Below are positions 29,159 through 48,359 of a stretch of DNA of 64,000 nucleotides, in pieces. The stretch is from an uncultured bacterium (GTDB taxonomy: Bacteria; Edwardsbacteria; AC1; EtOH8). The first letter of the stretch is position 1. Each line of letters starts with the position of its first letter. The translations under genes and the position numbers were made by a program. The stretch is taken from positions 143 to 64,142 of the forward strand of contig CAZPNX010000001.1 of assembly GCA_964588285.1 (NCBI GenBank), given 5' to 3'. A model generated the notes under the pieces. The model was given only the letters and a program-made list of their open reading frames with translations, was not told where the DNA came from and did not search any database.

Positions 29159-32100
29159 ATGCCTAAAAGTAGGCTCAAGATAATTAAGGCTGCCGCCGGG
29201 CTGCTTTTGCTATTGCTGGCGGGAAAGCTGGAGGCCCAGGGCTTTGGGGCCATGGATTCCCTGGCCGGGACAGTGGCCGGCCGCGACCTGCAGATGCCCG
29301 CCACCACTGTTCAGTACGATCCCGACCTCGACCTCTGGCTGGAGCAGGAACTGGCCCAGGGCATCGTCTTTGATCTGCGCTACCGCACCTTTGATGGTCA
29401 ATGGCAGAGGCGGAGGGAGGAATCGTTGGAATCCCTGACCAGGGCCAGCCGCTACGATTTTCTCTCCAAACCGGCCGAAGCCAGGACCGGCGAAGGGCTG
29501 ATCCCGGATATCTCGGTGCCTCTGCCGGGGCTGGACAAAGTGCTGGGGGCCGGGGCCCAGGTCAAGATCAACGGCAATCAGAAGATCTCGGTGGGCGGCG
29601 AGCAGACGGTCTATCCCAACAGCAAGAGCACCTCGGAGCTGGAGAGGGCCCGAAGCAATTTCGACCTGAAGATCAAGCAGGAGCAGCGCATCAACTTGGA
29701 GGGGGTTATCGGCGACCGTGTCCACGTGCTCATCGACCACGACAGCCAGGCCGATATCGACAAAAAAAGCAAGGTGCGGCTGCGCTACGAGGGCAAGGAG
29801 GACGAAATCATAGAAAGCCTGGAGGCCGGGGACACCGAGTTCTCCATCCAGGGCTCCTCTCTGGTGGGCGGCCTGACCACGGTCCACAAGGGCCTGTTCG
29901 GCATAAAGGGGGTGGCCCGGCTGGGGGGACTGGAGCTTTCGGCCATCGCCAGCAAGGACGAGGGCCAGAGCCAAAGCGAAAGCTATACCGGCCAGAGCCA
30001 GAAGGACAGTTTCGCTTTGCGCGATTACGAGTTCATCAACTATCGATTCTATCGTCTGCCCCTGGCCCAGGGCGACTCCATCATGGACCTGCGGGTCTAC
30101 GTCAACGACAACACCCAGACCAGCCAGGCCATCAATGCCTGGCTCCTGGACCACAGCTGGCGGGACTTCGGCTATGACCCCAGCCGGGTTGACACCCTCT
30201 ACGGCAGCCTGACCCAGATCATGCTTAAGGAGAACCTTACCGACTACGTGCTGGATGACCGCCGCAACGGGATTCTGTACACCCGGCACAGCCTGGACCG
30301 CAGCCACATCATGGCGGTGGCCATGAAGGTCTACAATCCGGGATACGGCGTCCGCTACTATCCGGATTCCACCGCCTTCTATCCCGGAGTCTTCATCAAC
30401 CCCAACCTGGCGGTGATGAAGCGAAGCAACCCCCAGCCTCCGGACAGCATCAACGGCTACAGCTGGCTCTATCAGGAGCGGCGTTTCTACGACCTGCGCA
30501 AGCCGCAGATTATCCAGTCCAGCCTCAAGATCAGGATCTACAAGGACACCGGGGAGAATGTGTTGTTGGAGCGCGACACCCTGATGCCGGGCCGGCCGAC
30601 CTTCATCCACCGGCTGGGGCTGGACCGTGACGACAACGGCGAAATCGACCCCGATTTCCTCCGCCTGGGCGACGAGGGTTTCTTCTATTTCCCCTATAGC
30701 GAACCGTTCGCCATGGACAGTCTGCTTACGGATCCCAACACCGTCATCTACCGCAAGGTTGACCCCGAGCCCAGCGACTCCAAATACCGGGTGGTGATAA
30801 CCTTCCTGACGTCCACCGCCATTTTCAACCTGAGGGCGCCGGGCCGCATCATCGAGGGCAGCGTCAAAGTCTATGTCGGCGGACAGCTGCTGCCAGAGAG
30901 CGATTACCAAATGGACTACGACACGGGATTGATTACCTTTACCGCGGCGGCTTCGGACCGCATCAACCGGCCGGACGTCCAACTGAAGATAGACTATCAA
31001 TACTATCCCATCTTCGCCTTAGGATCCAAGACTCTGGCCGGGGTCCGCGGCCTCTACAAGTTCAACGAATCGTCCCAGCTGGGGGCCACCTGGATGTACC
31101 GCAGCGAACGGACGCCCGAGGACAAGCCGCGCTTGGGCGAAGAGCCGCGGCGCATCATCGTAGCCGGAGTTGACGGAAGTTTTACAGCCAAGCCCGAGCT
31201 GATGACCAGGTTGGCCGATGCCCTACCCGGAGTCGAGACAGAAGCCCCCTCCCGGATGAGCTTTTCTGGCGAGGCGGCCGCCAATTTTCCCAACCCCAAC
31301 ACCAAGGGTCAGGTCTATATAGATGACATGGACGGGGCCAAGCTTTCCGACGAGTTCACCCTGTCGCGGCTCAATTGGGCCCGCTCCAGCGTTCCGACCG
31401 GCAAGCAGGCGTCCCAGCTGGCCCGGACCTTCTATTGGTACAACCCCCGCAACCGGGTTACCATGGGCGAGCTCAACCCCAACCTAACCGACCCGGCCGA
31501 ACGCTCCCAGCAGCTGACCACCCTCAAGATGCACTTAGTGCCGGACACGGCCGCCGGGCCGGCCGATTCCTCTTGGGCCGGGATCACCACAGTCCTCAGC
31601 AAGACGGGTTTGGATCTCACGGAGCGCCGGCTGCTGAATGTTTGGGTGAGGTCGATACGGAGCGATCAGCCGACGGCCGGCCAGGGAAAGCTGCATATCG
31701 ACATCGGCAAGAGCATCCACGAGGACCAGGCCCGGCGCAACGCAGCCGGTCTGCTGGTGGGGCCCAACGATTCGGTGAACGGAGAGCCTCTGAGCGCCGC
31801 CGGGGAGCAGGTGACCACCGACGCCAACGATATCGGCATCGACGGCTTCGCCAACGGCAGCCCCTACGATGACGGCAGCGACGACTTCAACCGGGACGAC
31901 TCCACCCGGATGAACGGCACCGAGGGCAACGGCTACTACGACACCGAGGACCTGCTGTTGACCGGCAAGCCGCTGGGGACGCCCTACGGCACCCCTCAGA
32001 ACAACTACCACACCTTCAGCTTCGATCTTTCCGGCGGCTCGGGTTGGCAGAAACTGACGATCGCCTTGGACAGCGCCCGGCAGGTGGGCAACATCGCCCG

Positions 32101-34780
32101 GAACGAATGGAACAATCTGGTCTACGCCCGGGTCTGGATGGACGGGCTGTCGGCGCCGGGCGACATAGAATTGGCCATGGTCGAGGTCACCGGCAACCGC
32201 TGGCTTTCCCAGGGGGTGGCCACCGAGGACACGGCCAATCCGGTGGATCCGCAATCCGAACGTTTTGACATCAGCGTCAAGAACAACCGGGACGACGCCG
32301 ACTATTCCCAGAATCCGCCTTACACCCCGGACAAAGACGAACAGGGCCGGGTCAAATTCGAGCAGAGCCTGGTGTACAAGATCGCCTCCCTGGACTCGGG
32401 ACATACGGTCAGCGCCAGGAGGAGCCTAAGGGAGGGCGAGAACAACTACACCGGCTACCGTACCATGAGGCTCTACGTCCGCAACCACGGCCGGGCGGTG
32501 CGGGGCTCGTTCTTCGTCAGGCTGATAGCCAGCGACAGCAACAGCTACTATGAATACCGGGAGCCGTTGACCGGCTATTGGCGGGACGTGGGCATCGAGC
32601 TCGACCGTTTCAGCGATCTTAAAAAGCTGCCCCGGGATTCCGGCCAGATCTTTGTCCGACAGGGCAATTACAGCATGCGGGGCCGCCCCAACCTTACCCA
32701 GCTATCGCGCATCGCCCTGGGAGCCTATGTCGATGAAAACGTCGCCACCGGGGACAACGTCGAGGTTTGGTTCGACGACCTGCGGCTGGACGACGTTCGT
32801 CGCGACGGAGGCGCCGCCATGATCACCCGGCTGGACCTGGGCTTCGCCGATCTGCTAGATGTCAACCTGAGCTACAACGACCGGAGCAGCCATTTCTATC
32901 GGATCGATGAGAGGCCGCCGACTTCGGGCAGCCGCAGCCAGGCCTTTGGGGCCAGCGGCACCATCAGGCTTCATAAGTTTTTCCTGGAGAAGCTGGGGCT
33001 GACCCTGCCGCTAACCTACCGTTATGCCGCCAGCAACACCTATCCCGAATTCGGCCGGGACGATATCCGTTTGAACAAGGAGGAGAGCCGGGAGGAAGCG
33101 ACGCGCCGCCGGGAATTGGGCTTTGGGGCCGGCATCAGCAAAAGCCTGTCCAAGTATTGGCTGACCAACCTGACGGTGGACCGTCTGTCTCCCTCTGTCA
33201 GCTGGAGCCGGAACACCGGACGGGATCCCAATTCGGCCGACAGCAACACCACCCTCACCATGGCTTTGGGCTACCGTTGGTCCCCGGCGACTCGGAGGGA
33301 GCTCAAGGTATTCCGGGGTTGGAAACTTTCCTACCTGCCCTCCAACCTCTCTTGGGACTGGAATAGCTCACAAACCAGGATATGGCGCTGGGACAAGCTG
33401 GCCAATGTGGTGAGCACTGTCGGCAGCGGCCGGACCCGCACTGCCCAAGGCCAGTTCGGCTGGCAGCCGGTGGAGCAGCTGACCTACAGTTTTGGCACCC
33501 AGCGCAACCTGCTGCAGAAAAGGATGGCCGGCCATCTGGCCCAGAGGCTGGGGCTGGGTTCGGAGGTGGGCCGCAATCAGAGTATAGATTACCGCACCAA
33601 CGTCAAATGGCTGAAGGTGGTTCAACCCACCGTCTCCTACACCGTCCGGTACAACGAGAGCCACCAGATGTACGGAGGCCAGGCCGGCGCCGACTCGGTG
33701 GACGTTATGGCCACCACCAACTCCAACAGCTTTTCCTCATCGGCCGGATTGGGCCTGGGCAAATGGATGTCCTTCTTGACCGGGCTGCGAAACGAGAAGC
33801 ACGACACCTCGGCCGAAGCCGGCAGTCCCAGGTGGGCGGTGATCCAGTTGGAGAAGTTCTTCAAGAGATGGAACGGAGTCTCGCTGGAATTTTCCCAGAC
33901 CAAGTCCAGCCAGACTTCGGGACTGTTGAGCCGGCCCGGATTTCTCTATCAGATCGGATGGCAAAGGGATCCTTCAGGCATCGCCCGCTACCGGCAGGCC
34001 GGCTCGGATCAGAGCAGTTTGGGCAACAACTATTCGGCCACCACCCAGGCGTCTATGGGAAGGATAAGCCTGGACCTGGCCTGGAGGCTGGGCGATGAAT
34101 GGAGGTGGTCGGGAGGCGTCACCAGCAGCCGCCGAAGCTTGACCTGGCCGGACGTCAGGGCCACCATGGGGTCTCTGGAGAGGCTGGGTTTTTGGAGGAA
34201 GGCCATGTCCAGCTCCAGCCTGACCGCCAACTACAGCCTGACCGCCGACAGCAGCTGGCAGCAGGACCGCGGATTTTTAAGCAAGGGCCAAAGGCAGAGG
34301 ATAGGAGCCGCCTGGAACGGCCGCTGGAAGAACCAAATCAACTCAGACCTGTCGGCCGATTATTCGCTGGAGGAAACCCGCGAGCCCAACCAGAACTATC
34401 CCGACGGCATCTTCCACAAGGTGACCTCCAGCCGCAAGCTTTCCACTTCGCTCTCCTATGCTTTCAGCGCCCCCAAGGGACTGGTGCTGAATTTTGGCAA
34501 GCTGGGTAAGCGACGCTTTAGATTCACAAGCTCCTTGAGCATGTCGCTGCGGGCCGAGTACACCGAGCGCGAGGAGAAAAGCAACTCGGTCGCCTCCAGG
34601 GATCTGGTGCCGTCGCGGCGTAGCCAGGAACTTTCTGTAGCCCCCAGCGCCAGCTACAATTTCTCCCGCAGCATTACCGGAAACCTGGCTATGGAGTACG
34701 CCTTCAACAAAGACAGGATCTCCTCGGTCAACAATTGGCGCCGCTATAGCCTTAACGCCGCGGTGGATATCAAGTTCTGA
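29159..34780 (+). CDS. giant (1873 aa) secreted outer-membrane protein; predicted very large beta-barrel (SprA-like?)
   Basis: Sec signal peptide 'MPKSRLKIIKAAAGLLLLLLAGKLEAQG'. Long C-terminal region of alternating-polarity beta-strand patterns rich in W/Y/S/R/N. C-terminus 'LNAAVDIKF' matches the OMP beta-signal (terminal Phe). No secretin motif seen. Confidence 0.8.
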   Translation: MPKSRLKIIKAAAGLLLLLLAGKLEAQGFGAMDSLAGTVAGRDLQMPATTVQYDPDLDLWLEQELAQGIVFDLRYRTFDGQWQRRREESLESLTRASRYDFLSKPAEARTGEGLIPDISVPLPGLDKVLGAGAQVKINGNQKISVGGEQTVYPNSKSTSELERARSNFDLKIKQEQRINLEGVIGDRVHVLIDHDSQADIDKKSKVRLRYEGKEDEIIESLEAGDTEFSIQGSSLVGGLTTVHKGLFGIKGVARLGGLELSAIASKDEGQSQSESYTGQSQKDSFALRDYEFINYRFYRLPLAQGDSIMDLRVYVNDNTQTSQAINAWLLDHSWRDFGYDPSRVDTLYGSLTQIMLKENLTDYVLDDRRNGILYTRHSLDRSHIMAVAMKVYNPGYGVRYYPDSTAFYPGVFINPNLAVMKRSNPQPPDSINGYSWLYQERRFYDLRKPQIIQSSLKIRIYKDTGENVLLERDTLMPGRPTFIHRLGLDRDDNGEIDPDFLRLGDEGFFYFPYSEPFAMDSLLTDPNTVIYRKVDPEPSDSKYRVVITFLTSTAIFNLRAPGRIIEGSVKVYVGGQLLPESDYQMDYDTGLITFTAAASDRINRPDVQLKIDYQYYPIFALGSKTLAGVRGLYKFNESSQLGATWMYRSERTPEDKPRLGEEPRRIIVAGVDGSFTAKPELMTRLADALPGVETEAPSRMSFSGEAAANFPNPNTKGQVYIDDMDGAKLSDEFTLSRLNWARSSVPTGKQASQLARTFYWYNPRNRVTMGELNPNLTDPAERSQQLTTLKMHLVPDTAAGPADSSWAGITTVLSKTGLDLTERRLLNVWVRSIRSDQPTAGQGKLHIDIGKSIHEDQARRNAAGLLVGPNDSVNGEPLSAAGEQVTTDANDIGIDGFANGSPYDDGSDDFNRDDSTRMNGTEGNGYYDTEDLLLTGKPLGTPYGTPQNNYHTFSFDLSGGSGWQKLTIALDSARQVGNIARNEWNNLVYARVWMDGLSAPGDIELAMVEVTGNRWLSQGVATEDTANPVDPQSERFDISVKNNRDDADYSQNPPYTPDKDEQGRVKFEQSLVYKIASLDSGHTVSARRSLREGENNYTGYRTMRLYVRNHGRAVRGSFFVRLIASDSNSYYEYREPLTGYWRDVGIELDRFSDLKKLPRDSGQIFVRQGNYSMRGRPNLTQLSRIALGAYVDENVATGDNVEVWFDDLRLDDVRRDGGAAMITRLDLGFADLLDVNLSYNDRSSHFYRIDERPPTSGSRSQAFGASGTIRLHKFFLEKLGLTLPLTYRYAASNTYPEFGRDDIRLNKEESREEATRRRELGFGAGISKSLSKYWLTNLTVDRLSPSVSWSRNTGRDPNSADSNTTLTMALGYRWSPATRRELKVFRGWKLSYLPSNLSWDWNSSQTRIWRWDKLANVVSTVGSGRTRTAQGQFGWQPVEQLTYSFGTQRNLLQKRMAGHLAQRLGLGSEVGRNQSIDYRTNVKWLKVVQPTVSYTVRYNESHQMYGGQAGADSVDVMATTNSNSFSSSAGLGLGKWMSFLTGLRNEKHDTSAEAGSPRWAVIQLEKFFKRWNGVSLEFSQTKSSQTSGLLSRPGFLYQIGWQRDPSGIARYRQAGSDQSSLGNNYSATTQASMGRISLDLAWRLGDEWRWSGGVTSSRRSLTWPDVRATMGSLERLGFWRKAMSSSSLTANYSLTADSSWQQDRGFLSKGQRQRIGAAWNGRWKNQINSDLSADYSLEETREPNQNYPDGIFHKVTSSRKLSTSLSYAFSAPKGLVLNFGKLGKRRFRFTSSLSMSLRAEYTEREEKSNSVASRDLVPSRRSQELSVAPSASYNFSRSITGNLAMEYAFNKDRISSVNNWRRYSLNAAVDIKF

Positions 34781-34855
34781 TCGCAGAAGACCCCGGCCTG
34801 CAAATCGGCGGCTCCAGGGATGCTTGAAAAGAGCACAACTTAGGATGGTTTTTTA

Positions 34856-35299
34856 ATGCTGGGATTAACCAAGGACGAAAAGCTGGTCATCGTTTTCCTC
34901 AGCATCAGCCTGGCGGCGGGGAGCTTGTTGTTGCTCTATAAAAGATTTCACCCCTCCTTCGCTACCGGACTACTCCGGTCGGACAAAGTTCTGCCGGCTC
35001 CGCTTACGGATACACTGTTTTCAGAGGCATCAGATTCCCTGCTTTCCCAGGAACCGGCCGCTGTCCGGACGGAAAAAATTGGTCCCGCCCGGGTTCCCTT
35101 GGCTCCGGTAAACATCAACACTGCCGGCCAAAAGACACTGGAAGCCCTGCCGCATATCGGCCCCTCAATGGCCAAGAGGATCATCGAGTACCGCAGCGCC
35201 TCGGGCGGATTTACCAACATCGAGCAACTGGGAAGGGTCAAAGGCATCGGCCCCAAGCGTCTGGAACAGCTCAGGCAGCATGTGACGGTTGACAGATGA
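34856..35299 (+). CDS. comEA: ComEA-family competence protein (membrane-anchored helix-hairpin-helix DNA-binding protein)
   Basis: N-terminal TM 'LVIVFLSISLAAGSLLLLY'; C-terminal tandem HhH 'ININTAGQKTLEALPHIGPSMAKRIIEYR...GFTNIEQLGRVKGIGPKRLEQL'. Confidence 0.8.
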   Translation: MLGLTKDEKLVIVFLSISLAAGSLLLLYKRFHPSFATGLLRSDKVLPAPLTDTLFSEASDSLLSQEPAAVRTEKIGPARVPLAPVNINTAGQKTLEALPHIGPSMAKRIIEYRSASGGFTNIEQLGRVKGIGPKRLEQLRQHVTVDR

Positions 35300-35355
35300 C
35301 GGCCGGAGGACAAAGTTTGACCGCCGGCCTTTATATTCCGGGCTTAGTTTTTTTC

Positions 35356-35384
35356 TTGACAAGCTCGGCTGGGTGTGATATAGT
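35356..35384 (+). promoter_or_regulatory. sigma-70 consensus promoter for the pilB operon
   Basis: TTGACA (35356-35361), 17-nt spacer, TGaTATAGT extended -10 (35376-35384), then SD 'AAGGGGAGGA' and ATG at 35408. Preceded by a GGCCGG...CCGGCC hairpin after comEA. Confidence 0.55.
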
Positions 35385-35407
35385 AAAATCAAGGGGAGGA
35401 AAGGTTT

Positions 35408-37102
35408 ATGGCGTTGAAACTCGGCGATTTCCTGGTTCAGAATAAGCTGATCACCAATGATCAGTTAAATGCCGCTTTGGCCGAGCAGAAGAACTCCGGC
35501 GAGCGACTGGGCTCCTGCCTGATCAAGCTGAAGTTCATCTCCGAGGAAAAGATCACCGAGGCTCTGGGCAAGCAGTTCAACCTGCCCACGATCAACCTCT
35601 CCAATATTGAGATCGATCCCCAGATACTGAAGCTGATACCGCACGAGATGGCTCACAAGTTCCAGATCGTCCCCATATCCAAGACCGGCCGCGTTCTGCA
35701 GCTGGCCATGTCCAACCCAGCCGACGTCTTTACCATCGACAACATCCAGTTTCTTACCGGACTGGAGGTAAAACCGGTGGTCTGCGCCGAGACCGCCATT
35801 GCCCGGGCGGTGGACAAGCTCTACGCCGCCTCAACCGGCCTGACCGAGGCCATGAAGGCGGTGCAGGAGGAGGAGGCCGCCGAGGTGGAGTTCGTGGAGA
35901 GGGAGGCCGAGCAGAACGTCACCCAGGCCGACATCGACGCCGCCCCGGTGGTCAAGCTGGTCAACAGCATGATCTTTGACGCCATCAAGCGGGGAGCCTC
36001 GGACATCCACATCGAGCCCTACGAGAAGGTGCTGCGGGTGCGCTTCCGCATCGACGGGGTTCTTCAGGAGACCATGTCGCCTCCAAAGCGCATTGCGGCC
36101 GCGGTAGCCTCGCGCATCAAGGTGCTCTCCAAGCTCAATCTGACCGAGCGCCGCCTGCCCCAGGACGGACGCTTCTCGGTCAAATCCGGCGACCAGAACG
36201 TCGACTTCCGCGTCTCCACCATGCCCATCAAGCACGGGGAGAAAATCTGCATCCGCATCCTGCGGCAGTCCGGCCTGTCCGGGGACCTTAACAAGCTGGG
36301 CCTTCAAGGCAAACCGCTGGAAGACCTTCTCAGTGCCATTGCCAAACCTCAGGGCATGGTGCTGATCACCGGACCCACCGGTTCGGGCAAGACCAACACC
36401 CTCTACTCCTGCATCAGCCGGCTGAACACGCCCAAGGTCAACATCAGCACCGCCGAGGATCCGGTGGAATACGACATCATGGGCATCAACCAGGTAAACG
36501 TTCAGACCGAGATCGGCTACACCTTCGCTAAGGCGCTCAAGGCCTTTCTGAGGCAGGATCCCAACATCATCCTGGTGGGCGAGATCCGGGACCGGGAGAC
36601 CGGCCAGATCGCCATGGAGGCGGCCATGACCGGCCACATGGTGCTTTCCACCCTGCACACCAACGACGCCCCCAGCACCCTGAACCGCCTGATCGAGATG
36701 GAGATCCCCACCTTCCTGATCGCGGCCACGGTCATCCTGATCGAGGCCCAGCGGCTGGTGCGCACCATCTGCCCCCACTGCAAGCAGCCTGACAAGCTGA
36801 GCCCGGACGACATCGCCAAGATGGGGGTGGACCCCCAGCTTTTGGCCGGAGCCACCCTCTACAAGGGGGCCGGCTGCATGGAATGCAACCGCACCGGCTA
36901 CAAGGGCCGGGTGGGCCTGTTCGAGATCCTGCCGGTGACCCCGGCCATCCGGGCGGCCATTTTGGCCAAGGCCACCTCGGACGAGATTAGAAAGATCGCG
37001 GTCAGGGAGGGGGTGAAGCTGTTGCGCGAAGACGGACTGGACAAGGTGCGGGCCGGGATCACCACCCTGGAGGCGGTCATCGCCAAGACGGTGGTCGACT
37101 GA
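35408..37102 (+). CDS. pilB: type IV pilus assembly ATPase PilB/GspE family (paralogue 1) with MshEN-type N-domain
   Basis: Walker A 'GPTGSGKT', Asp box, His box, tetracysteine 'CPHC...CMEC'. N-domain repeats 'KLGDFLVQNKLITNDQLNAALAEQ' and 'RLGSCLIKLKFISEEKITEALGKQ' match the 24-residue c-di-GMP-binding MshEN motif. Confidence 0.9.
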   Translation: MALKLGDFLVQNKLITNDQLNAALAEQKNSGERLGSCLIKLKFISEEKITEALGKQFNLPTINLSNIEIDPQILKLIPHEMAHKFQIVPISKTGRVLQLAMSNPADVFTIDNIQFLTGLEVKPVVCAETAIARAVDKLYAASTGLTEAMKAVQEEEAAEVEFVEREAEQNVTQADIDAAPVVKLVNSMIFDAIKRGASDIHIEPYEKVLRVRFRIDGVLQETMSPPKRIAAAVASRIKVLSKLNLTERRLPQDGRFSVKSGDQNVDFRVSTMPIKHGEKICIRILRQSGLSGDLNKLGLQGKPLEDLLSAIAKPQGMVLITGPTGSGKTNTLYSCISRLNTPKVNISTAEDPVEYDIMGINQVNVQTEIGYTFAKALKAFLRQDPNIILVGEIRDRETGQIAMEAAMTGHMVLSTLHTNDAPSTLNRLIEMEIPTFLIAATVILIEAQRLVRTICPHCKQPDKLSPDDIAKMGVDPQLLAGATLYKGAGCMECNRTGYKGRVGLFEILPVTPAIRAAILAKATSDEIRKIAVREGVKLLREDGLDKVRAGITTLEAVIAKTVVD

Positions 37103-37142: not shown

Positions 37143-38867
37143 ATGGCACTCAAGATAGGCGACATGCTGCTCAAGGCCGGTCTGATTTCCGGCGAGCAGC
37201 TGGACAAGGCCCTCAAGGAGCAGCAAAACACCAGCGGCCGGCTGGGATCCATCCTGGTGAAGCTGGGCTTCATCACCGAGGACGAGATCGTCCAGTTCCT
37301 CTCCAAACAGTTCAACGTGCCCTCGGTCAACCTGTCGGAGTACAAGATAGACGCCGCCACCATCAAGCTGATCCCTCCCCACATCGCCCAGAAGTACGGG
37401 GTCATCCCCCTGACTCGGCTGGGCCGGGTGATCACCGTGGCCATGGTCAATCCCAACGACGTTCTGGCCATGGACGACATCAAGTTCTCCACCGGCTTCG
37501 ACGTCCGGCCGGTGGTGGCCTCGGAGGGAGCCATCTGGTCGGCCATCGACAAGCAATACGGGTCGGCCGGAATGCTGGAGGACATGATGAAGTCATTGGA
37601 CGAGGCCATGGAGTCCGAGGACGAAGCGGGGCTGGAGGTGCTGGAGGAGGAGAAGGAGGACCAGAACGACGCCGCCTCGGAGATGGCGGCCGCCATCGAG
37701 AACAGCCCGGCCGCCAAGCTGGTCAACAAGCTGATAGCCGAGGCGGTGCAGCGCAGGGCCACCGACATCCACATCGAACCCTATGAGAAGGAGATGAGGG
37801 TGCGGATGTCGGTGGACGGGGTGCTCCACGAGATCATGAACCCACCGCTGAAGATGAAATCGTCGCTGGTGGCCCGCACCAAGATCATCTCCAAGCTCAA
37901 GGTGGAGGAAAAGCGCCTGCCCCAGGACGGCCGCATCCGGATGGTGCTTCAGGGCAAACCCATCGACATCCGGGTGTCCATCGTCCCCACCGCCTTCGGG
38001 GAGAAGGTGGCCATGCGCATCCTGGACCGGAGCAACGTCTCCTTCGACTTCAAGGACCTGGGGTTCGAGGAGGGTCCGCTGAAGCACCTGATCAAGGCCA
38101 TCACCACCCCCTTCGGCATCGTGCTGGTGACCGGCCCCACCGGCTGCGGCAAGACCACCACTCTCTACGCCTGTCTGGAGTACGTCAACAAGCCGGACAC
38201 CAACGTCATGACGGCCGAGGAGCCGGTGGAATACAGCTTGGTGGGAATCAACCAGGTCCCGGTCAAGGAGGAGGGGGGCACCACCTTCGCCGCCGCCCTC
38301 AAGGCCTTCCTGCGGCAGGACCCAAACATCATCATGGTGGGCGAGATCCGGGACAAGGAGACGGCCGAGATCGCCATCCGCTCCTCTCTCACCGGCCACC
38401 TGGTGATGTCCACCGTCCACACCAACAGCGCCGCCCTGACCATCACCCGTCTGGTGGACATGGGGGTCGAGCCTTTCATGATCGCCTCGTCCCTGCTGTG
38501 CGTCGAATCGCAGCGTCTGGTGCGGAGGATCTGCCCCTACTGCAAGGAAGAGCACCGGCCGGACGAGAAGCTGACGGCCGAGTTTTTAGGCAAGCACGTG
38601 GACATGCGCAGCATGAAGTTCTACCGGGGGAGGGGCTGCGCCGAGTGCCGCAACACCGGCTACAAGGGGCGGCTGGGGCTCTACGAGATCCTGCCCATCA
38701 CTCCGGCCATCAGGGACCTGATCCTGCAGAGCGCCACCACCGAAATCATCGAGAAAAAGGCGGTGGAGGAGGGCATGCCCACTCTGCGGCGCGACGGCAT
38801 CCTCAAGGTCTCCAAGGGTCTGACCACCATCGAGGAAGTCATCAAGGAAACCGTGGCCGAGGACTAG
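37143..38867 (+). CDS. pilB: PilB/GspE-family ATPase (paralogue 2) with MshEN-type N-domain
   Basis: '[10 protein letters not shown]', 'CPYC...CAEC'. N-domain '[24 protein letters not shown]' / '[24 protein letters not shown]'. Confidence 0.9.
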
Positions 38868-40789: not shown

Positions 40790-41863
40790 ATGATCACCCT
40801 GCAGCAGCTTCTGGAGGAACTGATCCAAAAGAAGGCCACCGACCTCCACCTGACGGCCGGGGTGCCCCCGGTTTTCCGCATCGACGGGGAGCTGGTCCAG
40901 TCCAACCACGAGATCATGACCCCGCAGATGACCGAGCAGCTGGCCTACAGCATTCTTACCGACCAGCGGAAAAAGCGCTTTGAAATGGAAAAGGAACTGG
41001 ACCTGTCCATAGGCATCACCGGCCTGTCGCGATTTAGGGGCAACGTCTTCCTGCAGCGGGGCGGGGTGGCCATGGCCCTGCGCACCATTCCCTGGGAGAT
41101 CCGCTCCTTCCAGGCCCTGGGTCTGCCTCCGGTGGCGGCCGAGCTGTCCGACAAGCCCAAGGGGCTGGTGCTGGTGACCGGGCCCACCGGTTCCGGCAAA
41201 TCCACCACCCTGGCCACCATGCTGGACAAGGTCAATTCCGAGCGCCGCTCCCACATTCTGACAGTGGAGGACCCCATCGAATATATGCACCACCACAAGA
41301 AGTGCATCGTCAACCAGCGGGAATTGGAGTCAGACACCAAGAGCTTCGGAAACGCCCTGAAGTACGCCCTGCGCCAGGATCCGGACGTGGTGCTGATAGG
41401 CGAAATGCGGGACCTGGAAACCATCGAGGCCGCTTTGCGCATCTCGGAGACCGGGCACCTGACCTTTGCCACCCTGCACACCAACTCGGCCATGGAGTCC
41501 ATCCACCGCATCATCGACGTCTTCCCGCCGCACCAGCAGTCACAGGTGCGGGCCCAGCTGGCCTTTGTGCTGGAGGGGGTGATGACCCAGCAGCTGGTGC
41601 CTATGACCCGCGGGGGCCGCTGTCTGGCGTTGGAGATCATGATCTGCACCCCGGCCATCAAAGCCCTGATCCGCGACGACAAGGTTCACCAAATCTACTC
41701 CCTGATGCAGGCCGGCCAGAAGTACGGCATGCAGACCATGAACCAATCACTGTTCCAGCTGTTTATGGACAAGAAGATTTCTTTAGACACGGCCCTGGAT
41801 TACTCTCCGGCTGTGGAAGAGCTGGATCAGATGATCAAGCGGAGAACGGCAAACGCGGTGTGA
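40790..41863 (+). CDS. pilT: twitching motility retraction ATPase PilT
   Basis: Lacks the GspE N-domain. 'ATDLHLTAGVPPVFRIDGEL', Walker A 'GPTGSGKSTT', 'AIKALIRDDKVHQIYSLMQAGQKYGMQTMNQSL' PilT C-terminal motif. Confidence 0.9.
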   Translation: MITLQQLLEELIQKKATDLHLTAGVPPVFRIDGELVQSNHEIMTPQMTEQLAYSILTDQRKKRFEMEKELDLSIGITGLSRFRGNVFLQRGGVAMALRTIPWEIRSFQALGLPPVAAELSDKPKGLVLVTGPTGSGKSTTLATMLDKVNSERRSHILTVEDPIEYMHHHKKCIVNQRELESDTKSFGNALKYALRQDPDVVLIGEMRDLETIEAALRISETGHLTFATLHTNSAMESIHRIIDVFPPHQQSQVRAQLAFVLEGVMTQQLVPMTRGGRCLALEIMICTPAIKALIRDDKVHQIYSLMQAGQKYGMQTMNQSLFQLFMDKKISLDTALDYSPAVEELDQMIKRRTANAV

Positions 41864-42227: not shown

Positions 42228-43442
42228 ATGCCAGTCTACGTATGGAAGGGGCGGGACTCCAAGTCCGGCATTGCTACCGGCGAGATGACGGCCGAAAACG
42301 AGGCGGCAGTCATCGAGGCCCTGCGCAAACGGAACGTCATCGTCTCCTCGGTCAGGCCCAAGCCCAAAGAGCTGAAGATGCCGGGCTTCATGGCCAGCAA
42401 GGTCTCCAGCCGGGACCTGTCCATCTTTACCCGCCAGTTTGCCACCATGATCAACGCCGGCCTGCCCCTGGTGCAGTGCCTGGAGATCCAGGCCGCCCAG
42501 CAGGAGAGCCCGGTGTTCAAGAAGGTTATCGAACAGGTGAAAACCGACGTCGAGGGCGGCTCCACCTTGGCCGAGGCCCTTAAGCGGCAGAAGCAGGTCT
42601 TCTCCGAGCTATACATCAACATGGCCGCGGCCGGAGAGGCCGGCGGTATTTTGGACAACATCCTTCTCCGCCTGGCGGTCTACTTGGAGAAGGCCGAGGC
42701 CCTGGCCCGGAAGATCAAAGGGGCCATGATCTACCCGGTGATCATGATCTGCGTGGCCATCGGCGCGGCCGCGGTGCTCTTGATATTCGTCATCCCCATC
42801 TTCGAGAAAATGTTCGGCGAGATGGGGGCCAAGCTGCCGGGCCCAACCCTGTTTGTCATCGGGCTTTCCAAATTTCTTCAAAAATATATAATTCTGATAA
42901 TTGCCGTCATTGCCGGAGCCATCTTCGCCATTCGCAACTGGTACAAAACAGACAAGGGCCAGTTATTTTTAGACCAGTTGATGCTGAAGATTCCCATTCT
43001 GGGAGACCTGCAGCAGAAATCTTCCATCGCCCGGTTCGCCCGGACCCTGGGGACGCTCTTGGCCTCGGGCGTGGCCATTTTGGACGCTCTGGAGATCACG
43101 GCCAAGACGGCCGGCAACCGGGTGGTCCAGGACGCCATTTTGTCGGCCCGCAAGTCAATCGGCGGCGGCGAGACCATCTCGGCGCCTTTAAAGACCATGA
43201 AGATCTTCCCGCCGATGGTGGTCCAGATGATCTCGGTGGGCGAGGCCACCGGCGGCCTGGACGAGATGCTCAACAAGATCGCCGATTTCTACGACGAGGA
43301 GGTGGACACCGCGGTGGAGAACCTGACCGCGGCCATGGAGCCCATGATCATGGTGGTTTTGGGCTTGGGCATTGGCGGCCTGGTGATCTCCATGTATCTG
43401 CCCATCTTCACCATGACCTCGGCCCTGATGGGCGGTAAATGA
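42228..43442 (+). CDS. pilC: type IV pilus platform protein PilC (GspF family)
   Basis: Duplicated GspF domains, 3 TM helices, 'MPVYVWKGRDSKSGIATGEMTAENEAAVIEALRKRNV' N-terminus. Confidence 0.9.
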   Translation: MPVYVWKGRDSKSGIATGEMTAENEAAVIEALRKRNVIVSSVRPKPKELKMPGFMASKVSSRDLSIFTRQFATMINAGLPLVQCLEIQAAQQESPVFKKVIEQVKTDVEGGSTLAEALKRQKQVFSELYINMAAAGEAGGILDNILLRLAVYLEKAEALARKIKGAMIYPVIMICVAIGAAAVLLIFVIPIFEKMFGEMGAKLPGPTLFVIGLSKFLQKYIILIIAVIAGAIFAIRNWYKTDKGQLFLDQLMLKIPILGDLQQKSSIARFARTLGTLLASGVAILDALEITAKTAGNRVVQDAILSARKSIGGGETISAPLKTMKIFPPMVVQMISVGEATGGLDEMLNKIADFYDEEVDTAVENLTAAMEPMIMVVLGLGIGGLVISMYLPIFTMTSALMGGK

Positions 43443-43687: not shown

Positions 43688-45904
43688 ATGAACCTTAAAA
43701 CCCCGTTTGCCGGCAATATTTCCTGGCTGGTTCGGTTGGGGCTTATGGTCCTGCTCCTGACCAGCGCGGCCGCCCTGGGCCGAATGGGCGTTCTTTCGAT
43801 CCGGCTGGGATGGGCTTTGTTGTTCAGCGCCGTATATCTGGCGGCCACCGCCGGACTGGCCGTCTGGAGGCGTCCGGATCTGAGGGCTGCAGCCGATTAC
43901 GCTCACATTTTGCTGGATATTTTATGGATTTTCGCCTTCATCCGGGCCGTGGGCGGGGCAGAAAGCCCGTTCTCACTGCTCTTCTTCCTGACCATCATCC
44001 AGGCGGCCAACGTCCGTTTTTTACGGGGGGCCATCGGGTCGGCGGCGCTCTCCAGCTTGGCCTTTGCCCTTTTGCTAGTCATGGAGTATAAATCCTGGGC
44101 CGCCGTTCAGCAGGGGGCGGGGTCGGCCGAGCTGATGGCCGCCTTCAGGGCCGACTTCCTTTTCCGGGGATATGTCTACGCCATCTGCTTCTTTGTGGTG
44201 GCCGCGCTTTCCGGCATCCTGGCCGAGAGGCTACGCCTTAAGGGCCGCCAGCTGGAGGCGGCCGCCCGCGGCTGGGAGGAGTTCCGTCTCTCCACCGGAG
44301 ACATCCTCAAGAAAATGGGCTCCGGCCTGCTGACGGTCAACGCCAACGGCCAGGTACGCTATTGCAACCGGACCGGGGCCGAAATTTTGGGCCTAGCAGA
44401 AGACAATATCGAGGGTTTGCAGATCAGCGAGGCCTTTAAGGGGAGGAACAACGCCTTTGGTTCGATTCTGGAATCAACCCTGCGGGCCGATCTGGAGCCG
44501 CCGGATGATGAAAGCCAGAGTGCCCAGGCCTCCAAGCGCCGATTGACCGATGTCCGTCGGGAACTGATTCTGCAGCGGGAGGATGGGTCGGAAATACCAA
44601 TCGGCATAAGCACCACCACGGTGCGGGACGCCGAGGGCAGGGTGCAGGGTCTGATCGCCATTTTCCAAAACCTGACAGAGGCCAAGCGCATTGAGGGCCG
44701 CCTGCAACAGATGGAGAAACTGGAGGCCCAGAACGAGCACACCCATATATTGTTGACCATGGTCCAGCCGATGCTGGCCGGCATCGAGCAGGACATCGGC
44801 CGGGCGACCGAGCGCTTTTCCGGGGCCGAGCTTGAAGAGTTGTCCCGGGACATCGGGGCCAAGGTGGAATCGGTGCGCCGGGTGATTGAGGACTTCATGC
44901 GCTATGCCCGGATCGAGATCCCCCAGGAACGCCGTGAGGACGGGGGGAATCCGCCGTCCGAAGAGAAGGCGGTCATCGGACGTTCCCGTATTTTTCTAAA
45001 AACCATGGAGCTGGTGGGACAGGTGGCGGCCTCTGACAGCACGGTGCTGCTCCAGGGCGAGTCCGGCACCGGCAAGGAGCTGCTGGCCCGGGAGATCCAC
45101 CGGTTAAGCAAGCGGCGCCACGGGCCTTTCGTCACCATCAACTGCGCCGCCCTGCCCGAGGGTCTTTTGGAGTCCGAGCTTTTTGGGCATGTCCGGGGCT
45201 CGTTCACCGGGGCGGTGCGGGACAAGGACGGTCTGTTTAGGGCAGCCGACGGGGGCACCTTCTTTTTGGACGAGGTTTCCGAGACTTCGCCGGCCATCCA
45301 GGTCAAGCTTTTAAGGGTGCTGCAAGAGAGGGAGATCGTTCCGGTCGGCGGTTCCAAGCCCATCAAGGTGGATGTCAGGTTGATTTCGGCCACCAATGCC
45401 GTTTTGGCAGACTTGGTGGAAAAGGGCCGGTTCCGCAGCGACCTGTTCTACCGGCTTAATGTAATCCCCATAAGCATTCCGCCCCTAAGGGAGCGGGAGG
45501 ATGACATCCTGCTGTTGGCCGAGCACTTTATCGCCAAATACTGCCAAAAGACGGGAAAGCCAATGATGGGGTTTTCCGAGCGGGCCGAGAAGGCCTTAAA
45601 ATCGTATAGATGGCCTGGGAACGTCAGGGAGCTGGAGAACGCCATGGAAAGGGCGGTGGTGGTTTCAGATTCGGTCAAAATAGAATTGGAGGACCTGCCC
45701 AAGAACGTTCAGGAGGCTGGGAAGTCACAGAAACAAATCCCTGAAATCAGGGCCGGCGAAGGGACCCTGCGCGAAAAGGAGATGGAGTCCATTGTCCGCG
45801 CTCTTAGGGAGGAGAAAGGCAACAAGAAGCTGGCGGCCAAAAGGTTGGGGATACATTACGCCACGCTGTATCGGAAGATCAAGCAGTATGGGCTGGAAGG
45901 CTAA
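43688..45904 (+). CDS. sigma-54-dependent transcriptional activator with N-terminal integral-membrane sensor and PAS domain (no receiver domain)
   Basis: ~190-aa N-terminus with 5-6 TM helices, then a PAS-like region ('[22 protein letters not shown]'). AAA+ sigma54 domain '[18 protein letters not shown]', 'GSFTGA', 'GGTFFLDEV'. C-terminal Fis-type HTH '[23 protein letters not shown]'. Confidence 0.85.
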
Positions 45905-45993
45905 CATACCCACCTCGAACATGCCCTTCGGCTATGCTCAGGGCAGCGCTCGGTATATGCCACGTTCCCATCGATTCTAAGTGAACAAGGCAT

Positions 45994-46025
45994 ATTGCAA
46001 AATGCGAAAAGTTGCATTTTGCAAT
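45994..46025. promoter_or_regulatory. perfect 12-bp inverted repeat (candidate enhancer/UAS) upstream of the pilin sigma-54 promoter
   Basis: ATTGCAAAATGC-gaaaagtt-GCATTTTGCAAT, ~115 bp upstream of the -24 element. Confidence 0.45.
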
Positions 46026-46138
46026 ATAAAAGAACAGTAAGAAAATTAAGAAAACATTGCTGGAAATATCTGTGATTTATAAACTCTTTATATTCAAAGA
46101 CTAACAAAATCATAAAAATTATAAAAAACTGTTGACTT

Positions 46139-46154
46139 TGGCACTTCGATTGCA
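46139..46154 (+). promoter_or_regulatory. sigma-54 (-24/-12) promoter of the major pilin gene
   Basis: TGGCAC-ttcga-TTGCA exactly matches the TGGCAC-N5-TTGC(A/T) consensus, 67 nt upstream of the pilin ATG and directly downstream of the sigma-54 activator gene. Confidence 0.75.
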
Positions 46155-46220
46155 TTATAATTTAATGGAATTCTAACAAAACCAACAACCAACCATTTAA
46201 CACTTTAGGAGGCAAAACGG

Positions 46221-46763
46221 ATGAACAACAAAGGCTTCACCCTCATCGAGCTGATGATCGTGGTGGTCATCATCGGCATCTTGGCAGCCATCGCCATCCC
46301 CAACTTCATCTCCATGCAAAACCGGGCTAAGGAAGCCAGCGTCAAGTCTAACATGCATACAATCCAGTTGGCGGCCGAGGACTTTAGCACCATTACCGAG
46401 GGAACATATCCTTCGGACTGCGCTACAACCATAGGGCAAGTAAGAACAGTCATTTTCGGCGCTGGCGATCCATTGGCAGCCGATCCTCGCTCGCTTTGTG
46501 GCGCAGCTGCCGGCTTAACTCCTGCCGCTGCCAACAGCATGGTCCCATCCAACATGAGAAATCCGATAGTGGGCGCCAATAACGCGTTCCAGTCGGTAGG
46601 TATCAATGCGGTGCACGCTCCCGGCACTTCGGGGACAGTCGGTTTCGAATCCTTTGACAACGCGGCAGCTACACCAGCTGCGATCGGAGCTGCCGTGCGG
46701 TACGAGATTGATGGTGACGGTGTCACCGCAGTCATAGCGACTGTATTGACCTCTGGTCAGTAA
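46221..46763 (+). CDS. pilA: type IVa major pilin (PilA-like)
   Basis: Prepilin leader 'MNNKG' then 'FTLIELMIVVVIIGILAAIAIPNF' (class III signal, Glu+5). SD AGGAGG. Ala/Pro/Ser/Thr-rich C-terminal half. Confidence 0.9.
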   Translation: MNNKGFTLIELMIVVVIIGILAAIAIPNFISMQNRAKEASVKSNMHTIQLAAEDFSTITEGTYPSDCATTIGQVRTVIFGAGDPLAADPRSLCGAAAGLTPAAANSMVPSNMRNPIVGANNAFQSVGINAVHAPGTSGTVGFESFDNAAATPAAIGAAVRYEIDGDGVTAVIATVLTSGQ

Positions 46764-46780
46764 TAATCAGCTCGATGGAA

Positions 46781-46815
46781 GATGGGCCGTATTGTAAAAT
46801 ACGGCCCATCTTTTT
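46781..46815 (+). terminator. rho-independent terminator after the pilin gene
   Basis: GATGGGCCGTAT-tgtaaa-ATACGGCCCATC followed by TTTTT. Confidence 0.75.
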
Positions 46816-46901
46816 CGAAATTCACAAAATGAATTTTAGGCGGACAGGAAATCTCTCGCCTCCTTTTCTCGAGAGAAGGGGTAAGGTGATGGGTTAAATT
46901 C

Positions 46902-47276
46902 TTGGATAAAAGATTATTAGCTTCTCTAGCTGTGATCGGACTCATGTCCTGCGCCTCCGACACGCCCGAGGCCGGGGTCAAACGCTACTGGCAGGCGGTG
47001 GCCGAGGGCAATGCCGACAAAATGCTGCGCACCCAGATTTACTATCGACCGGGGATGACCTCGGAATATCTGATGACGATAAAGGACATCGAATGGCTGT
47101 ATCTGGACAGCTGTTCCACGGTCTACCAGAGCCCGGCCCGAGCCATCGTCTACTACCAGGTGGTTTTTAAAAAAAGAGGACGGGCAAAGTCAACAAGATA
47201 TGCGACCGGCACCATGGTTATTCTACGCAACAGAAAGTGGCTGGTTGGGCGGCCGGTGGGTGCGATTCGCCGATGA
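46902..47276 (+). CDS. small predicted lipoprotein, unknown function
   Basis: TTG start; signal peptide with lipobox 'LMSC'. Sits between the two pilin genes. Confidence 0.5.
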   Translation: MDKRLLASLAVIGLMSCASDTPEAGVKRYWQAVAEGNADKMLRTQIYYRPGMTSEYLMTIKDIEWLYLDSCSTVYQSPARAIVYYQVVFKKRGRAKSTRYATGTMVILRNRKWLVGRPVGAIRR

Positions 47277-47360
47277 GTAATGCCGTCAATTATCCGGCCG
47301 GAATCTTAGCGAAGAGGTTGGGAAAAAATCGTTTTTTGCAGAAGAATACTGGAGGCCGAC

Positions 47361-48359
47361 ATGAAGCACGGGAACAGAAGAAAAAGCATTCTGCTCAATA
47401 AGCGGATGCAGCTTAGCCTGGTATTCAGGATACTTGGAATTTCTTTGATCAGCATCCTGCTGATTGGCGGTTGCATATATCTGACCATCTGGATCCACGT
47501 AACATCTTCGGCCTTTGCTTCCGGAAAGATGTCGATGATCCAGATTTTCGACCGAGTCCATATGTTGCTGGCAGCGGTCCTTCCGGCGGCAGTCCTCTTA
47601 GTATTGTGGATGGGATTGCACATTTCCCATTCGATACTGGGGCCGCTGGTGAGGCTGGAAAACGAGTTCAAATCCATCAGACAGAATGGCTGGCATGGCC
47701 AGCCATTGAAGTTCAGGAAAAACGACGGCTTCGCCGAGCTAGCGATGGAGTTCAACGCCATGATGGATAGTCTGCAGCCTCAGGGAAAACCCTCCATTGG
47801 CCCTACAACTCCTGCTACTGAGCCTGGGAAAGAAAAATTCAAGTACGCCGGAGGCTTCACCCTCATCGAGTTGATGATCGTAGTCGTCATTATCGGCATA
47901 TTAGCGGCTATCGCGGTCCCCAACTACATCTCTATGCGTTTGCGGGCGCTTGAGGCCTCCTTAAAAGCGAATATGCATACCCTACAATGCGTTGTCGAGG
48001 AGTTCAACACCATGGCCGACGGCACATACCCGGGCGGTCTTGATGTCAGAGTGTCTGCCGTCATTCCAGCAGGGATAAATTCGTCCATTGCCGAAGGCGT
48101 CAGGATACCACCATTCCCCGCCAATGCGCTTATAAGCCCCCATGCAGGATATGCTAACCCGTTCAACCGCGCGTCAAATGCACTAGATGACTTAGCGGCT
48201 GGACCACCAGCGGTTGCACCCAGCGGTAACGTTTATTATACAGCCTATAATCAATTAGGTAATGTGACAAACGGCGTAGAAAACGCCGCATCAAGATATG
48301 TAATAACAGCTTATGGCAATAATGCACCGCTAAGCTTAGTGTTGAGATCCGGGCAATAG
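47361..48359 (+). CDS. 2TM-HAMP module fused in frame to a type IV pilin domain (or pilin with an extraordinarily long leader)
   Basis: Residues 1-135: two TM helices plus HAMP-like 'ILGPLVRLENEFKSIRQNG...NDGFAELAMEFNAMMDSL'. Then a Pro/Thr-rich linker, then 'KFKYAGG|FTLIELMIVVVIIGILAAIAVPNY' at residue 166 (F codon at 47856). No stop codon between the two parts. Confidence 0.7.
   Translation: MKHGNRRKSILLNKRMQLSLVFRILGISLISILLIGGCIYLTIWIHVTSSAFASGKMSMIQIFDRVHMLLAAVLPAAVLLVLWMGLHISHSILGPLVRLENEFKSIRQNGWHGQPLKFRKNDGFAELAMEFNAMMDSLQPQGKPSIGPTTPATEPGKEKFKYAGGFTLIELMIVVVIIGILAAIAVPNYISMRLRALEASLKANMHTLQCVVEEFNTMADGTYPGGLDVRVSAVIPAGINSSIAEGVRIPPFPANALISPHAGYANPFNRASNALDDLAAGPPAVAPSGNVYYTAYNQLGNVTNGVENAASRYVITAYGNNAPLSLVLRSGQ

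Follow-up and report, generated by a model that had tools for sequence, protein, structure and literature searches.

A probable core type IVa pilus cluster of an Edwardsbacteria/UBP2 bacterium, with three PilB paralogues, a PilS-PilR fusion and a prepilin bearing a long HAMP-like leader

The type IVa pilus (T4aP) cluster of Myxococcus xanthus has the gene order pilB-pilT-pilC-pilS-pilR-pilA-pilGHI-pilD. Both pilGHI and pilRS belong to the Myxococcus cluster; in most genomes, pilMNOPQ usually form a cluster of their own and the remaining T4aP genes are scattered (PMC6060248). How multiple extension ATPases share one system is an open question, with PilB and TfpB of Acinetobacter baylyi as an example (2024 PilB review, PMC11656802). 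Here, we analyze a locus within a 64,000-nucleotide stretch (henceforth termed the window) of contig CAZPNX010000001.1 from an uncultured Edwardsbacteria/UBP2 bacterium, in which the genes at 29159-48359 had been proposed to encode a non-canonical type IV pilus or DNA-uptake machine. We consider it probable that the region is the core T4aP cluster of this bacterium, a derived version of the Myxococcus/Geobacter-type cluster. Specific to the lineage are a triple PilB, a PilS-PilR fusion without a phosphorelay and a prepilin whose leader carries two transmembrane (TM) segments and a HAMP-like domain; these mark a variant and not a new type of machine.

Pfam and NCBIfam scans covered the large open reading frames (ORFs) of the window except those at 13210-18011. 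Every gene listed in the original prediction for 29159-48359 was recovered at its position and on the forward strand. The series on this strand continues to 51658 and encodes, in order, a giant SprA-like protein, a ComEA-like protein, PilB1 to PilB3, PilT, PilC, a fused sigma-54 activator, a pilin, a putative lipoprotein, a pilin with a HAMP-like leader (HAMP-pilin), an ABC transporter ATPase, a DUF559 protein, an ABC-2 permease and a 297-amino-acid protein. Upstream of the giant gene lie lptF and lptG on the opposite strand and, further away, a polysaccharide cluster; topA lies downstream. A scan of a genome collection with PilB2 as query returned 79 loci (given L numbers below), onto which the window proteins were mapped by tblastn. 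All nine Edwardsbacteria/UBP2 loci contain lptFG (reverse strand), the giant gene, comEA, pilB1 to pilB3, pilT, pilC, the fused activator, pilins and the ABC genes in identical order, with identity of the giant protein down to about 38-47%. Since the order is kept in 9/9 loci, the arrangement is not a product of chance. The conserved unit extends downstream through an ABC-2 exporter, comprising 48413-49357, 49993-50760 and probably also 50765-51658. Seven Gemmatimonadota loci have lptFG (reverse strand), the giant gene, comEA, a single pilB, pilT and pilC in common with Edwardsbacteria; L011, L016, L059, L060, L064 and L065 are carriers of this neighbourhood.

In most other loci (Myxococcales, other delta groups, Acidobacteriota, Thermodesulfobacteriota and WOR-3), pilB-pilT-pilC is followed by two genes matching the N- and C-terminal halves of the activator and then by a pilin gene, and the core order with split PilS and PilR recurs in Gemmatimonadota loci as well. 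The proposal that the locus matches no described T4aP layout therefore does not hold, because its core, pilB-pilT-pilC-(pilS/pilR)-pilA-ABC, has the Myxococcus/Geobacter-type order found in WOR-3, Myxococcales, delta, Acidobacteriota and Gemmatimonadota loci. The likeness to the Myxococcus xanthus/Geobacter cluster covers the succession of motors, platform, sigma-54 regulator(s), major pilin and ABC transporter; moreover, PilC and the pilins have their best NCBIfam matches among Myxococcus models, and the best solved PilB is that of Geobacter. The window differs in having three PilBs instead of one, in the fusion of PilS to PilR with loss of the kinase and receiver domains, in the absence of pilD and pilMNOPQ from the cluster, and in sprA and comEA upstream. 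Another counterpart is the WOR-3 locus L070, from a related FCB candidate phylum, with the order pilB-pilT-pilC-pilS-pilR-pilA-pilD. A domain scan identified a full PilS (6TM_PilS, PAS, HisKA, HATPase_c) and a full PilR (receiver (REC), sigma-54 AAA+, helix-turn-helix (HTH)), followed by pilA and pilD. L070 shares the gene order, the 6TM_PilS and PAS sensor and a 56% identical PilR AAA+/HTH portion with the window, but has one PilB, an intact two-component pair, pilD within the cluster and no sprA or comEA upstream.

The three assembly ATPases of the original prediction are real and conserved in all nine Edwardsbacteria/UBP2 loci. PilB1 (35408-37102, 564 amino acids), PilB2 (37143-38867, 574 amino acids, Walker A GPTGCGKT) and PilB3 (38922-40694, 590 amino acids, with a longer linker) each contain MshEN and T2SSE domains by Pfam. 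They score 692.7, 668.5 and 681.5 bits, respectively, against the T4a PilB model TIGR02538, whose cutoff of 675.65 is exceeded by PilB1 and PilB3 and just missed by PilB2. The top PDB match of PilB1 is Geobacter PilB (6olj, E 5e-178). Pairwise identity among the paralogues is ~50%, compared with 64-95% among orthologues across genomes, and a neighbour-joining tree (no bootstrap) resolves three separate Edwardsbacteria PilB clades. All three window proteins have intact Walker A and Walker B motifs, an intact His box and all four zinc-binding Cys residues; a motif scan of orthologues found most of these features, with the gaps ascribed to over-strict search patterns. The three PilBs are thus ancient paralogues, all catalytically competent as judged by their motifs. 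Other identities were tried and rejected: TfpB model scores of 443-466 are far under the cutoff of 850 for every PilB, and for type II secretion (T2SS), type IVb pilus, Tad and Com systems, the GspE, ComGA, TadA and BfpD models or structures score under T4a PilB, with PilT present and no GspD, Flp or ComG genes among the scanned ORFs of the window.

The paralogues differ in their N-terminal regulatory domain. Judged against the consensus of the MshEN motif for cyclic di-GMP (c-di-GMP), PilB1 and PilB2 have an intact motif (71.9 and 74.6 bits against NF053729) and PilB3 has a degenerate one (32.0 bits; cutoff 38). The window PilB3 has lost RLG in both MshEN repeats, and all six PilB3 orthologues lack R/K-L-G in the second repeat as well as the basic residue in the first one. 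This pattern of motif conservation suggests that PilB1 and PilB2 have retained the N-terminal c-di-GMP site described for MshEN (PMC11656802) and that PilB3 has lost it. A GGDEF diguanylate cyclase gene (L083 11312-12532, just past the right end of the window) and a cNMP-binding Crp-type regulator gene (61274-61909) both lie within 15-25 kb of the PilBs with a c-di-GMP motif. The motor genes are preceded by a sigma-70-like promoter (35356-35384, forward strand; TTGACA-17-TATAGT, extended TG) that agrees with the consensus at 11 of 12 positions and is a consensus match only. They are followed on the same strand by the genes for the retraction ATPase PilT (40790-41863; TIGR01420 487.5 bits, cutoff 319) and the platform protein PilC (42228-43442), which has two T2SSF matches and whose best NCBIfam match is the Myxococcus-type PilC model NF052606 (499 bits, under the cutoff of 700).

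Multiple extension ATPases usually serve distinct machines and are not interchangeable (PMC11656802), which raises the question of whether the three PilBs power separate type IV filament systems, for example a T2SS, an MSH-like pilus and a competence pilus, with their other genes elsewhere. Consistent with this idea, all three score high against the GspE (T2SS) model (567-583 bits, below its cutoff of 630), and a 4.3-kb gene separates pilB1 from pilB2 in L006. We nevertheless regard it as unlikely, as all three score best as T4a PilB, they stand beside a single pilT and a single pilC in 9/9 genomes, and a single system with two ATPases is known in A. baylyi (PMC11656802). Rather, it is probable that all three PilBs work on one platform and differ in how they are regulated. 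The competence T4aP of A. baylyi, with PilB and TfpB, is alike in apparently having more than one extension ATPase on a single pilus system (PMC11656802); in the window, however, there are three tandem PilB-type paralogues, none of them TfpB and one without the c-di-GMP motif.

The regulator downstream of pilC had been described as a one-component, membrane-bound sigma-54 activator, and this holds up as a real and conserved feature. The gene (43688-45904, forward strand) encodes a single chain of 738 amino acids with matches to 6TM_PilS (33.4 bits), Sigma54_activat (229 bits), HTH_8 (44 bits) and PAS, laid out as a PilS-type multi-TM region, PAS, a degenerate DHp, a sigma-54 AAA+ domain and a Fis-type HTH. 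Residues 89-412 align to residues 97-395 of the WOR-3 PilS (E 4e-22), spanning the TM, PAS and DHp parts and ending at the DHp end, and residues 429-736 align to residues 146-452 of the WOR-3 PilR with 56% identity, starting just past the receiver domain. Pfam gives no HisKA, HATPase_c or Response_reg (REC) match in the protein. From its sequence, the activator is a PilS fused directly to PilR from which the kinase and receiver domains are gone, and as such it lacks the histidine-kinase core and the REC of a PilS-PilR two-component system. In all 11 aligned orthologues, the position of the phospho-acceptor His is occupied by T, Q, K or A. The AAA+ domain has kept its Walker A (GESGTGKE) and the GAFTGA-type loop (GSFTGA). 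Among 5.8 billion proteins searched, only ~45 clusters (at least 48% identity), labelled Edwardsbacteria or TA06, showed the same domain arrangement; beyond them, matches fall to classic REC-PilR proteins of ~455 amino acids. A 1041-amino-acid protein, P0166, carries HisKA, HATPase_c, REC, sigma-54 AAA+ and HTH in one chain; this full-length PilS-PilR-type fusion could represent an intermediate toward the reduced Edwardsbacteria form.

A functional parallel is PilS-PilR of Pseudomonas aeruginosa, in which a six-TM PilS-type sensor likewise controls the sigma-54 activator of the major pilin gene. There the system is a two-component pair; in the window, another residue replaces the DHp His and neither an ATP-binding nor a receiver domain is present, so that a single membrane-tethered polypeptide is predicted to work without phosphotransfer. 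P. aeruginosa PilS is said to sense pilin in the inner membrane, a report from Kilmury and Burrows in 2016. By analogy, the signal read by the fusion protein is possibly the membrane pilin pool.

The likely target of the fusion protein, as far as the sequence allows, is the promoter of the gene next to it. This gene (46221-46763, forward strand) encodes the major-pilin candidate, pilin1, a protein of 180 amino acids with an N_methyl match and a short leader (MNNKG/FTLIELM, the slash marking the cleavage site) that constitutes a class III signal peptide (G/F...E5). Its best NCBIfam match is the Myxococcus-type PilA, over the N-terminal part only. The start codon has an AGGAGG ribosome-binding site and is preceded, at a distance of 82 nucleotides, by a sigma-54 -24/-12 promoter (TGGCACTTCGATTGCA, 46139-46154, forward strand) with an exact TGGCAC-N5-TTGCA match. 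As originally predicted, this promoter is a genuine and conserved feature: comparable sigma-54 elements occur 71-82 nucleotides upstream of pilin1 in L004, L006 and L056. A perfect 14-nucleotide inverted repeat (ATATTGCAAAATGC / GCATTTTGCAATAT, 45992-46027, unstranded), situated 112-147 nucleotides upstream of the sigma-54 element, may serve the fusion protein as an upstream activator site, and a related TTGCA-N3-TGCAA motif is found upstream of pilin1 in L004, L006 and L056 and also in L087. Dual promoter use is possible at the pilin gene, where sigma-54 and sigma-70-like elements overlap. The gene has its own intrinsic terminator hairpin (46772-46818, forward strand; dG -32 kcal/mol, z -7.55), with none of 200 shuffled sequences as stable, and a comparable hairpin is visible after pilin1 in L004. 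In L009, a 163-amino-acid ORF (19136-19627) whose N-terminus resembles, by eye, an IS200/RAYT-type transposase lies between the activator and the pilins.

The least precedented element of the locus is the HAMP-pilin. This protein of 332 amino acids (47361-48359, forward strand; ATG preceded by a GGAGG ribosome-binding site) is a prepilin with a 165-residue leader, composed of two TM segments, a HAMP-like stretch and a linker, that is followed by G/FTLIELM and a pilin domain. Hydrophobic segments span residues 18-36, 68-86 and 168-186, and the prepilin motif lies at residues 163-185. The HAMP-like stretch sits after the second TM segment and has a predicted helix-loop-helix consistent with HAMP. 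Taken together, the basic N-terminus and the hydrophobic segments predict a topology in which the HAMP-like domain and the cleavage site are cytoplasmic and the pilin domain is outside, which is the orientation PilD needs. Residues 1-160 (the N-module) belong to a large family of standalone 2TM-HAMP proteins of 135-210 amino acids, with 1216 representatives at E of 0.001 or below in an exhaustive search; standalone homologues reach 33-42 bits against Pfam HAMP, above the cutoff in several cases. The closest of them (P0361, in L087) is encoded 340 nucleotides upstream of a sigma-54-driven pilin gene, and in L004, the closest relative (PilB 95% identical), and in L056 the orthologous pilin has an ordinary short leader. 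Across the window, L004, L056 and L087, the N-module is thus encoded next to a pilin, fused to it or missing altogether, and we infer that the leader can be removed and has a separate regulatory role. A general link of the standalone family to pilins was rejected: P0362, P0363 and P0367 are encoded beside unrelated genes, the neighbours of P0364 have no Pfam match, and only the closest member, P0361, lies by a pilin. Modular type IV pilins, such as Streptococcus sanguinis PilB (PMC8179133), are similar in joining a pilin to an additional functional module. In the modular pilins known to us, however, the module is C-terminal and displayed on the filament, whereas that of the HAMP-pilin lies ahead of the class III signal peptide and would be lost on processing.

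An unusual fusion of this kind might reflect an artefact of assembly or gene calling, or a decaying gene from which only a short internal prepilin is made. The short leaders of the L004 and L056 orthologues fit this explanation, as do the separate genes for the two parts in L087 and, in the alignment, a Met 5-19 residues before the cleavage site in some homologues. Against it stand ~20 full-length homologues (346-362 amino acids) that align end to end at 44-53% identity. The 13 that were aligned share 30-odd invariant N-module residues and an invariant G-F-T-L-I-E, and the coiled-coil linker between them varies in length but always stays in frame. The window sequence has no internal sigma-54 element and no in-frame ATG, GTG or TTG within 28 codons of the cleavage site, and the two-TM topology is exactly as required for correct pilin orientation. 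Assembly error was rejected on the grounds that the identical 332-amino-acid ORF is present in four independent assemblies. We thus hold an artefact or decaying gene to be very improbable, and the HAMP-pilin of the original prediction to be real and conserved.

Between the two pilin genes lies a small conserved gene (46902-47276, forward strand) for a protein of 124 amino acids with no Pfam or NCBIfam match. Its lipobox-like LMSC (...VIGLMSC...) would make it a lipoprotein only with a TTG start. The protein is conserved in L004, L042 and L056, and the JGI gene call is shorter (110 amino acids). Downstream of the HAMP-pilin, the forward strand encodes the pilus-linked ABC-2 exporter. Its PilH/GldA-like ATPase (48413-49357) has an ABC_tran match and reaches 192 bits, under cutoff, against the GldA model TIGR03522. 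The permease (49993-50760) is assigned by ABC2_membrane_2, a weak GldF match and synteny. The 297-amino-acid protein (50765-51658), with one N-terminal hydrophobic segment and no Pfam or NCBIfam match, is by synteny probably an accessory subunit of the exporter. An ABC ATPase gene is located downstream of the pilin genes in L004, L006 and L042, and downstream of pilBTC in the Acidobacteriota loci L063 and L069; in the latter two, the series is pilBTC, ABC ATPase, ABC-2 permease, a homologue of the 297-amino-acid protein and then PilD. A DUF559 (endonuclease-like) gene (49495-49935) lies between the window's ATPase and permease genes, which are adjacent in L006. The DUF559 ORF of L002 has only 57 amino acids, and the gene resembles a short selfish element that inserted here and is being degraded in some strains.

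In line with the original prediction, Pfam detected no pilM, pilN, pilO, pilP, pilQ or pilD and no separate pilS or pilR in the scanned ORFs of the window. For PilD, tblastn with the WOR-3 protein gave no match in the window, none was present in any fetched Edwardsbacteria locus, and of 120 matches in a database search with the same query none was attributable to Edwardsbacteria. The absence of pilMNOPQ and pilD had been taken as the mark of a non-canonical machine. Because pilMNOPQ are usually encoded apart (PMC6060248), it carries little weight at the scale of 64 kb and is in fact the usual situation. By analogy with nearly all T4aP-bearing bacteria, pilMNOPQ, pilD and minor pilins would be expected elsewhere in the genome.

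The giant outer-membrane protein at the upstream end of the locus (29159-34780, forward strand; 1873 amino acids) is, by homology, a member of the SprA/Sov family of type IX secretion (T9SS) translocons. It has a signal peptide, a Pfam SprA_N match and a C-terminal Phe, and scores well above the cutoff of the NCBIfam equivalog for T9SS translocon SprA/Sov (TIGR04189, 407.9 bits, cutoff 200). Its sole PDB matches are structures of Flavobacterium johnsoniae SprA (6h3i and 6h3j, E 3e-29), the only solved relative, from which it differs in being ~500 residues shorter (1873 vs 2403 amino acids), in coming from a non-Bacteroidota phylum and in being encoded beside comEA and pil genes. Its gene occupies the syntenic position in every Edwardsbacteria and Gemmatimonadota locus. 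In L006, a 1429-amino-acid protein with a T9SS type A sorting domain (5631-9920; TIGR04183, 44 bits, cutoff 23) is inserted between PilB1 and PilB2. T9SS cargo is thus present in the phylum, and an ordinary role is available for SprA.

These data bear on the proposal that the 19-kb block is a self-contained DNA-uptake machine that dispenses with a secretin and alignment complex, using the giant protein as conduit and ComEA as DNA receptor. The contiguity of sprA-like, comEA and pilB-pilT-pilC genes in two phyla (9 Edwardsbacteria and 7 Gemmatimonadota loci) and the lack of a secretin in any fetched sequence speak in its favor. We find it far-fetched all the same: the giant protein passes a SprA/Sov equivalog cutoff and has ordinary cargo in L006, pilMNOPQ are normally encoded away from pilBTC, no comEC, dprA or comF was found among the scanned ORFs of the window, and a promoter-like site lies between comEA and pilB1. 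That a SprA-like barrel, in place of a secretin, forms the outer-membrane route for pilus or DNA is much less likely still than the rewired control pictured below. In the T4aP core cluster that we propose, the SprA-like protein probably does not belong to the pilus machine, its gene being a conserved neighbour on the upstream side. More generally, the two leftmost genes, for the giant protein and ComEA, are conserved neighbours rather than established parts of the pilus machine.

The ComEA-like protein (34856-35299, forward strand; 147 amino acids) combines an N-terminal membrane anchor (putative TM segment at hydrophobic residues 10-28) with a C-terminal helix-hairpin-helix (HhH) domain of predicted DNA-binding function (HHH_3, 79 bits). 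Its scores are at or below the ComEA family cutoffs (TIGR00426 52.9, cutoff 53.1; TIGR01259 66.9, cutoff 152), and its PDB matches include the ComEA structures 8dfk, 8dss and 2duy (E 6e-10). The observation that comEA is embedded next to the motor genes is borne out, as all nine Edwardsbacteria and all seven Gemmatimonadota loci have comEA upstream of pilB, an arrangement absent from the ~60 other loci. Grouping it with these genes is not: in every Edwardsbacteria locus, comEA starts 11-75 nucleotides past sprA and 86-400 nucleotides ahead of pilB1, and in the window the strong sigma-70-like promoter separates comEA from pilB1, which makes sprA, and not the motor genes, look like its operon partner. 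In related loci, comEA directly follows sprA, except in the Gemmatimonadota locus L011, where a peptidase M28 gene lies between them; the ComEA of L011 has two HhH units.

The adjacency of comEA and pilB in two phyla still genuinely hints at a connection with DNA uptake, and ComEA may let the pilus serve this function. An ordinary T4aP core whose main role is natural transformation, i.e., a competence pilus with ComEA, would be compatible with our assignment, and the constant position of comEA immediately upstream of pilB, the resemblance to solved ComEA proteins and the presence of a retraction ATPase are what one would look for. Yet ComEA-family HhH proteins are widespread, this one scores at or under the ComEA cutoffs and is encoded nearer sprA than pilB1, no other competence genes were seen among the scanned ORFs of the window, and T4aP are usually multi-functional. 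A main role in transformation therefore seems rather doubtful, and we keep to a T4aP core cluster with comEA as a conserved neighbour.

Several features of the surroundings were recorded in addition. G+C content falls to 0.48-0.51 across the polysaccharide cluster (4001-16000) and to 0.49 across the pilin genes (46001-48000), compared with ~0.58-0.62 elsewhere. Pilin number and order vary among related genomes, which, together with the low G+C content, fits variable, exchanged cassettes for surface structures. The ±10-kb flanks of the window contain only polysaccharide, purine and lipid genes. An Rfam scan of the whole window detected no riboswitch, such as one for c-di-GMP, near the pil genes. 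A tRNA followed by a fluoride riboswitch (RF01734, 48.3 bits, cutoff 34) occupies 59298-59436, directly upstream of a gene of the Na_H_Exchanger family (59484-60686).

A number of points weigh against our interpretation of the cluster and its parts. No secretin, PilMNOP, PilD or minor pilin was found in the window, its ±10-kb flanks or the fetched Edwardsbacteria loci, and the completeness of the pilus machine in Edwardsbacteria is assumed. There is no sigma-54 element upstream of the L009 pilins, and a sigma-70-like match at 11 of 12 positions (TTGACT-18-TATAAT, 46132-46161) overlaps the sigma-54 element of the window. The c-di-GMP responses assigned to the PilBs are predictions from motif conservation. 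For the HAMP-pilin, the HAMP match of the 332-amino-acid protein (22.9 bits) is under the Pfam cutoff of 25, the AlphaFold2 model is too poor for a search by fold (mean pLDDT 51), with only its secondary structure used, and we know of no precedent for the cleavage of a prepilin with a 165-residue leader. Finally, the ABC proteins match GldA and GldF only under cutoff and are putative counterparts of PilH and PilI.

With these points in mind, the locus most probably works as follows. A sigma-70-type promoter would drive pilB1-pilB2-pilB3-pilT and thereby supply three extension motors and one retraction motor, which would act on the single platform encoded by pilC, with regulation divided between PilB1 and PilB2, predicted to keep the c-di-GMP-responsive site, and PilB3, predicted to have lost it. 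The PilS membrane and PAS sensor would directly control the PilR AAA+ domain without phosphotransfer, via the DHp dimerisation remnant, and the fusion protein would activate the sigma-54 promoter of the major pilin from the upstream palindrome. Prepilin peptidase would cut the second pilin at the cytoplasmic G/F site to yield a normal pilin and a small membrane HAMP protein. The downstream ABC-2 exporter would be the counterpart of the pilus-linked pilGHI-type transporter, and sprA (T9SS translocon) and comEA are upstream neighbours conserved in Edwardsbacteria and Gemmatimonadota. Tentatively, and with much lower confidence than for the cluster identity itself, one may picture a single T4aP platform under rewired control: three specialised PilBs, two gated by c-di-GMP and one independent, possibly forming mixed hexamers; a membrane-anchored PilS-PilR that reads the pilin pool; and a 2TM-HAMP leader of 165-190 residues that couples pilin processing stoichiometrically to a signal.

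None of these features changes the kind of machine, which is still a T4aP. They do make the locus a natural experiment on how several extension ATPases share one machine, the question left open in PMC11656802. A PilS sensor wired straight to an AAA+ domain bears on the direct control of sigma-54 activators without phosphotransfer, and the fused pilin bears on whether prepilin peptidase handles very long, membrane-embedded leaders. Finally, the comparison documents a conserved sprA-comEA-pil neighbourhood in Edwardsbacteria and Gemmatimonadota, together with SprA and T9SS cargo outside Bacteroidota.

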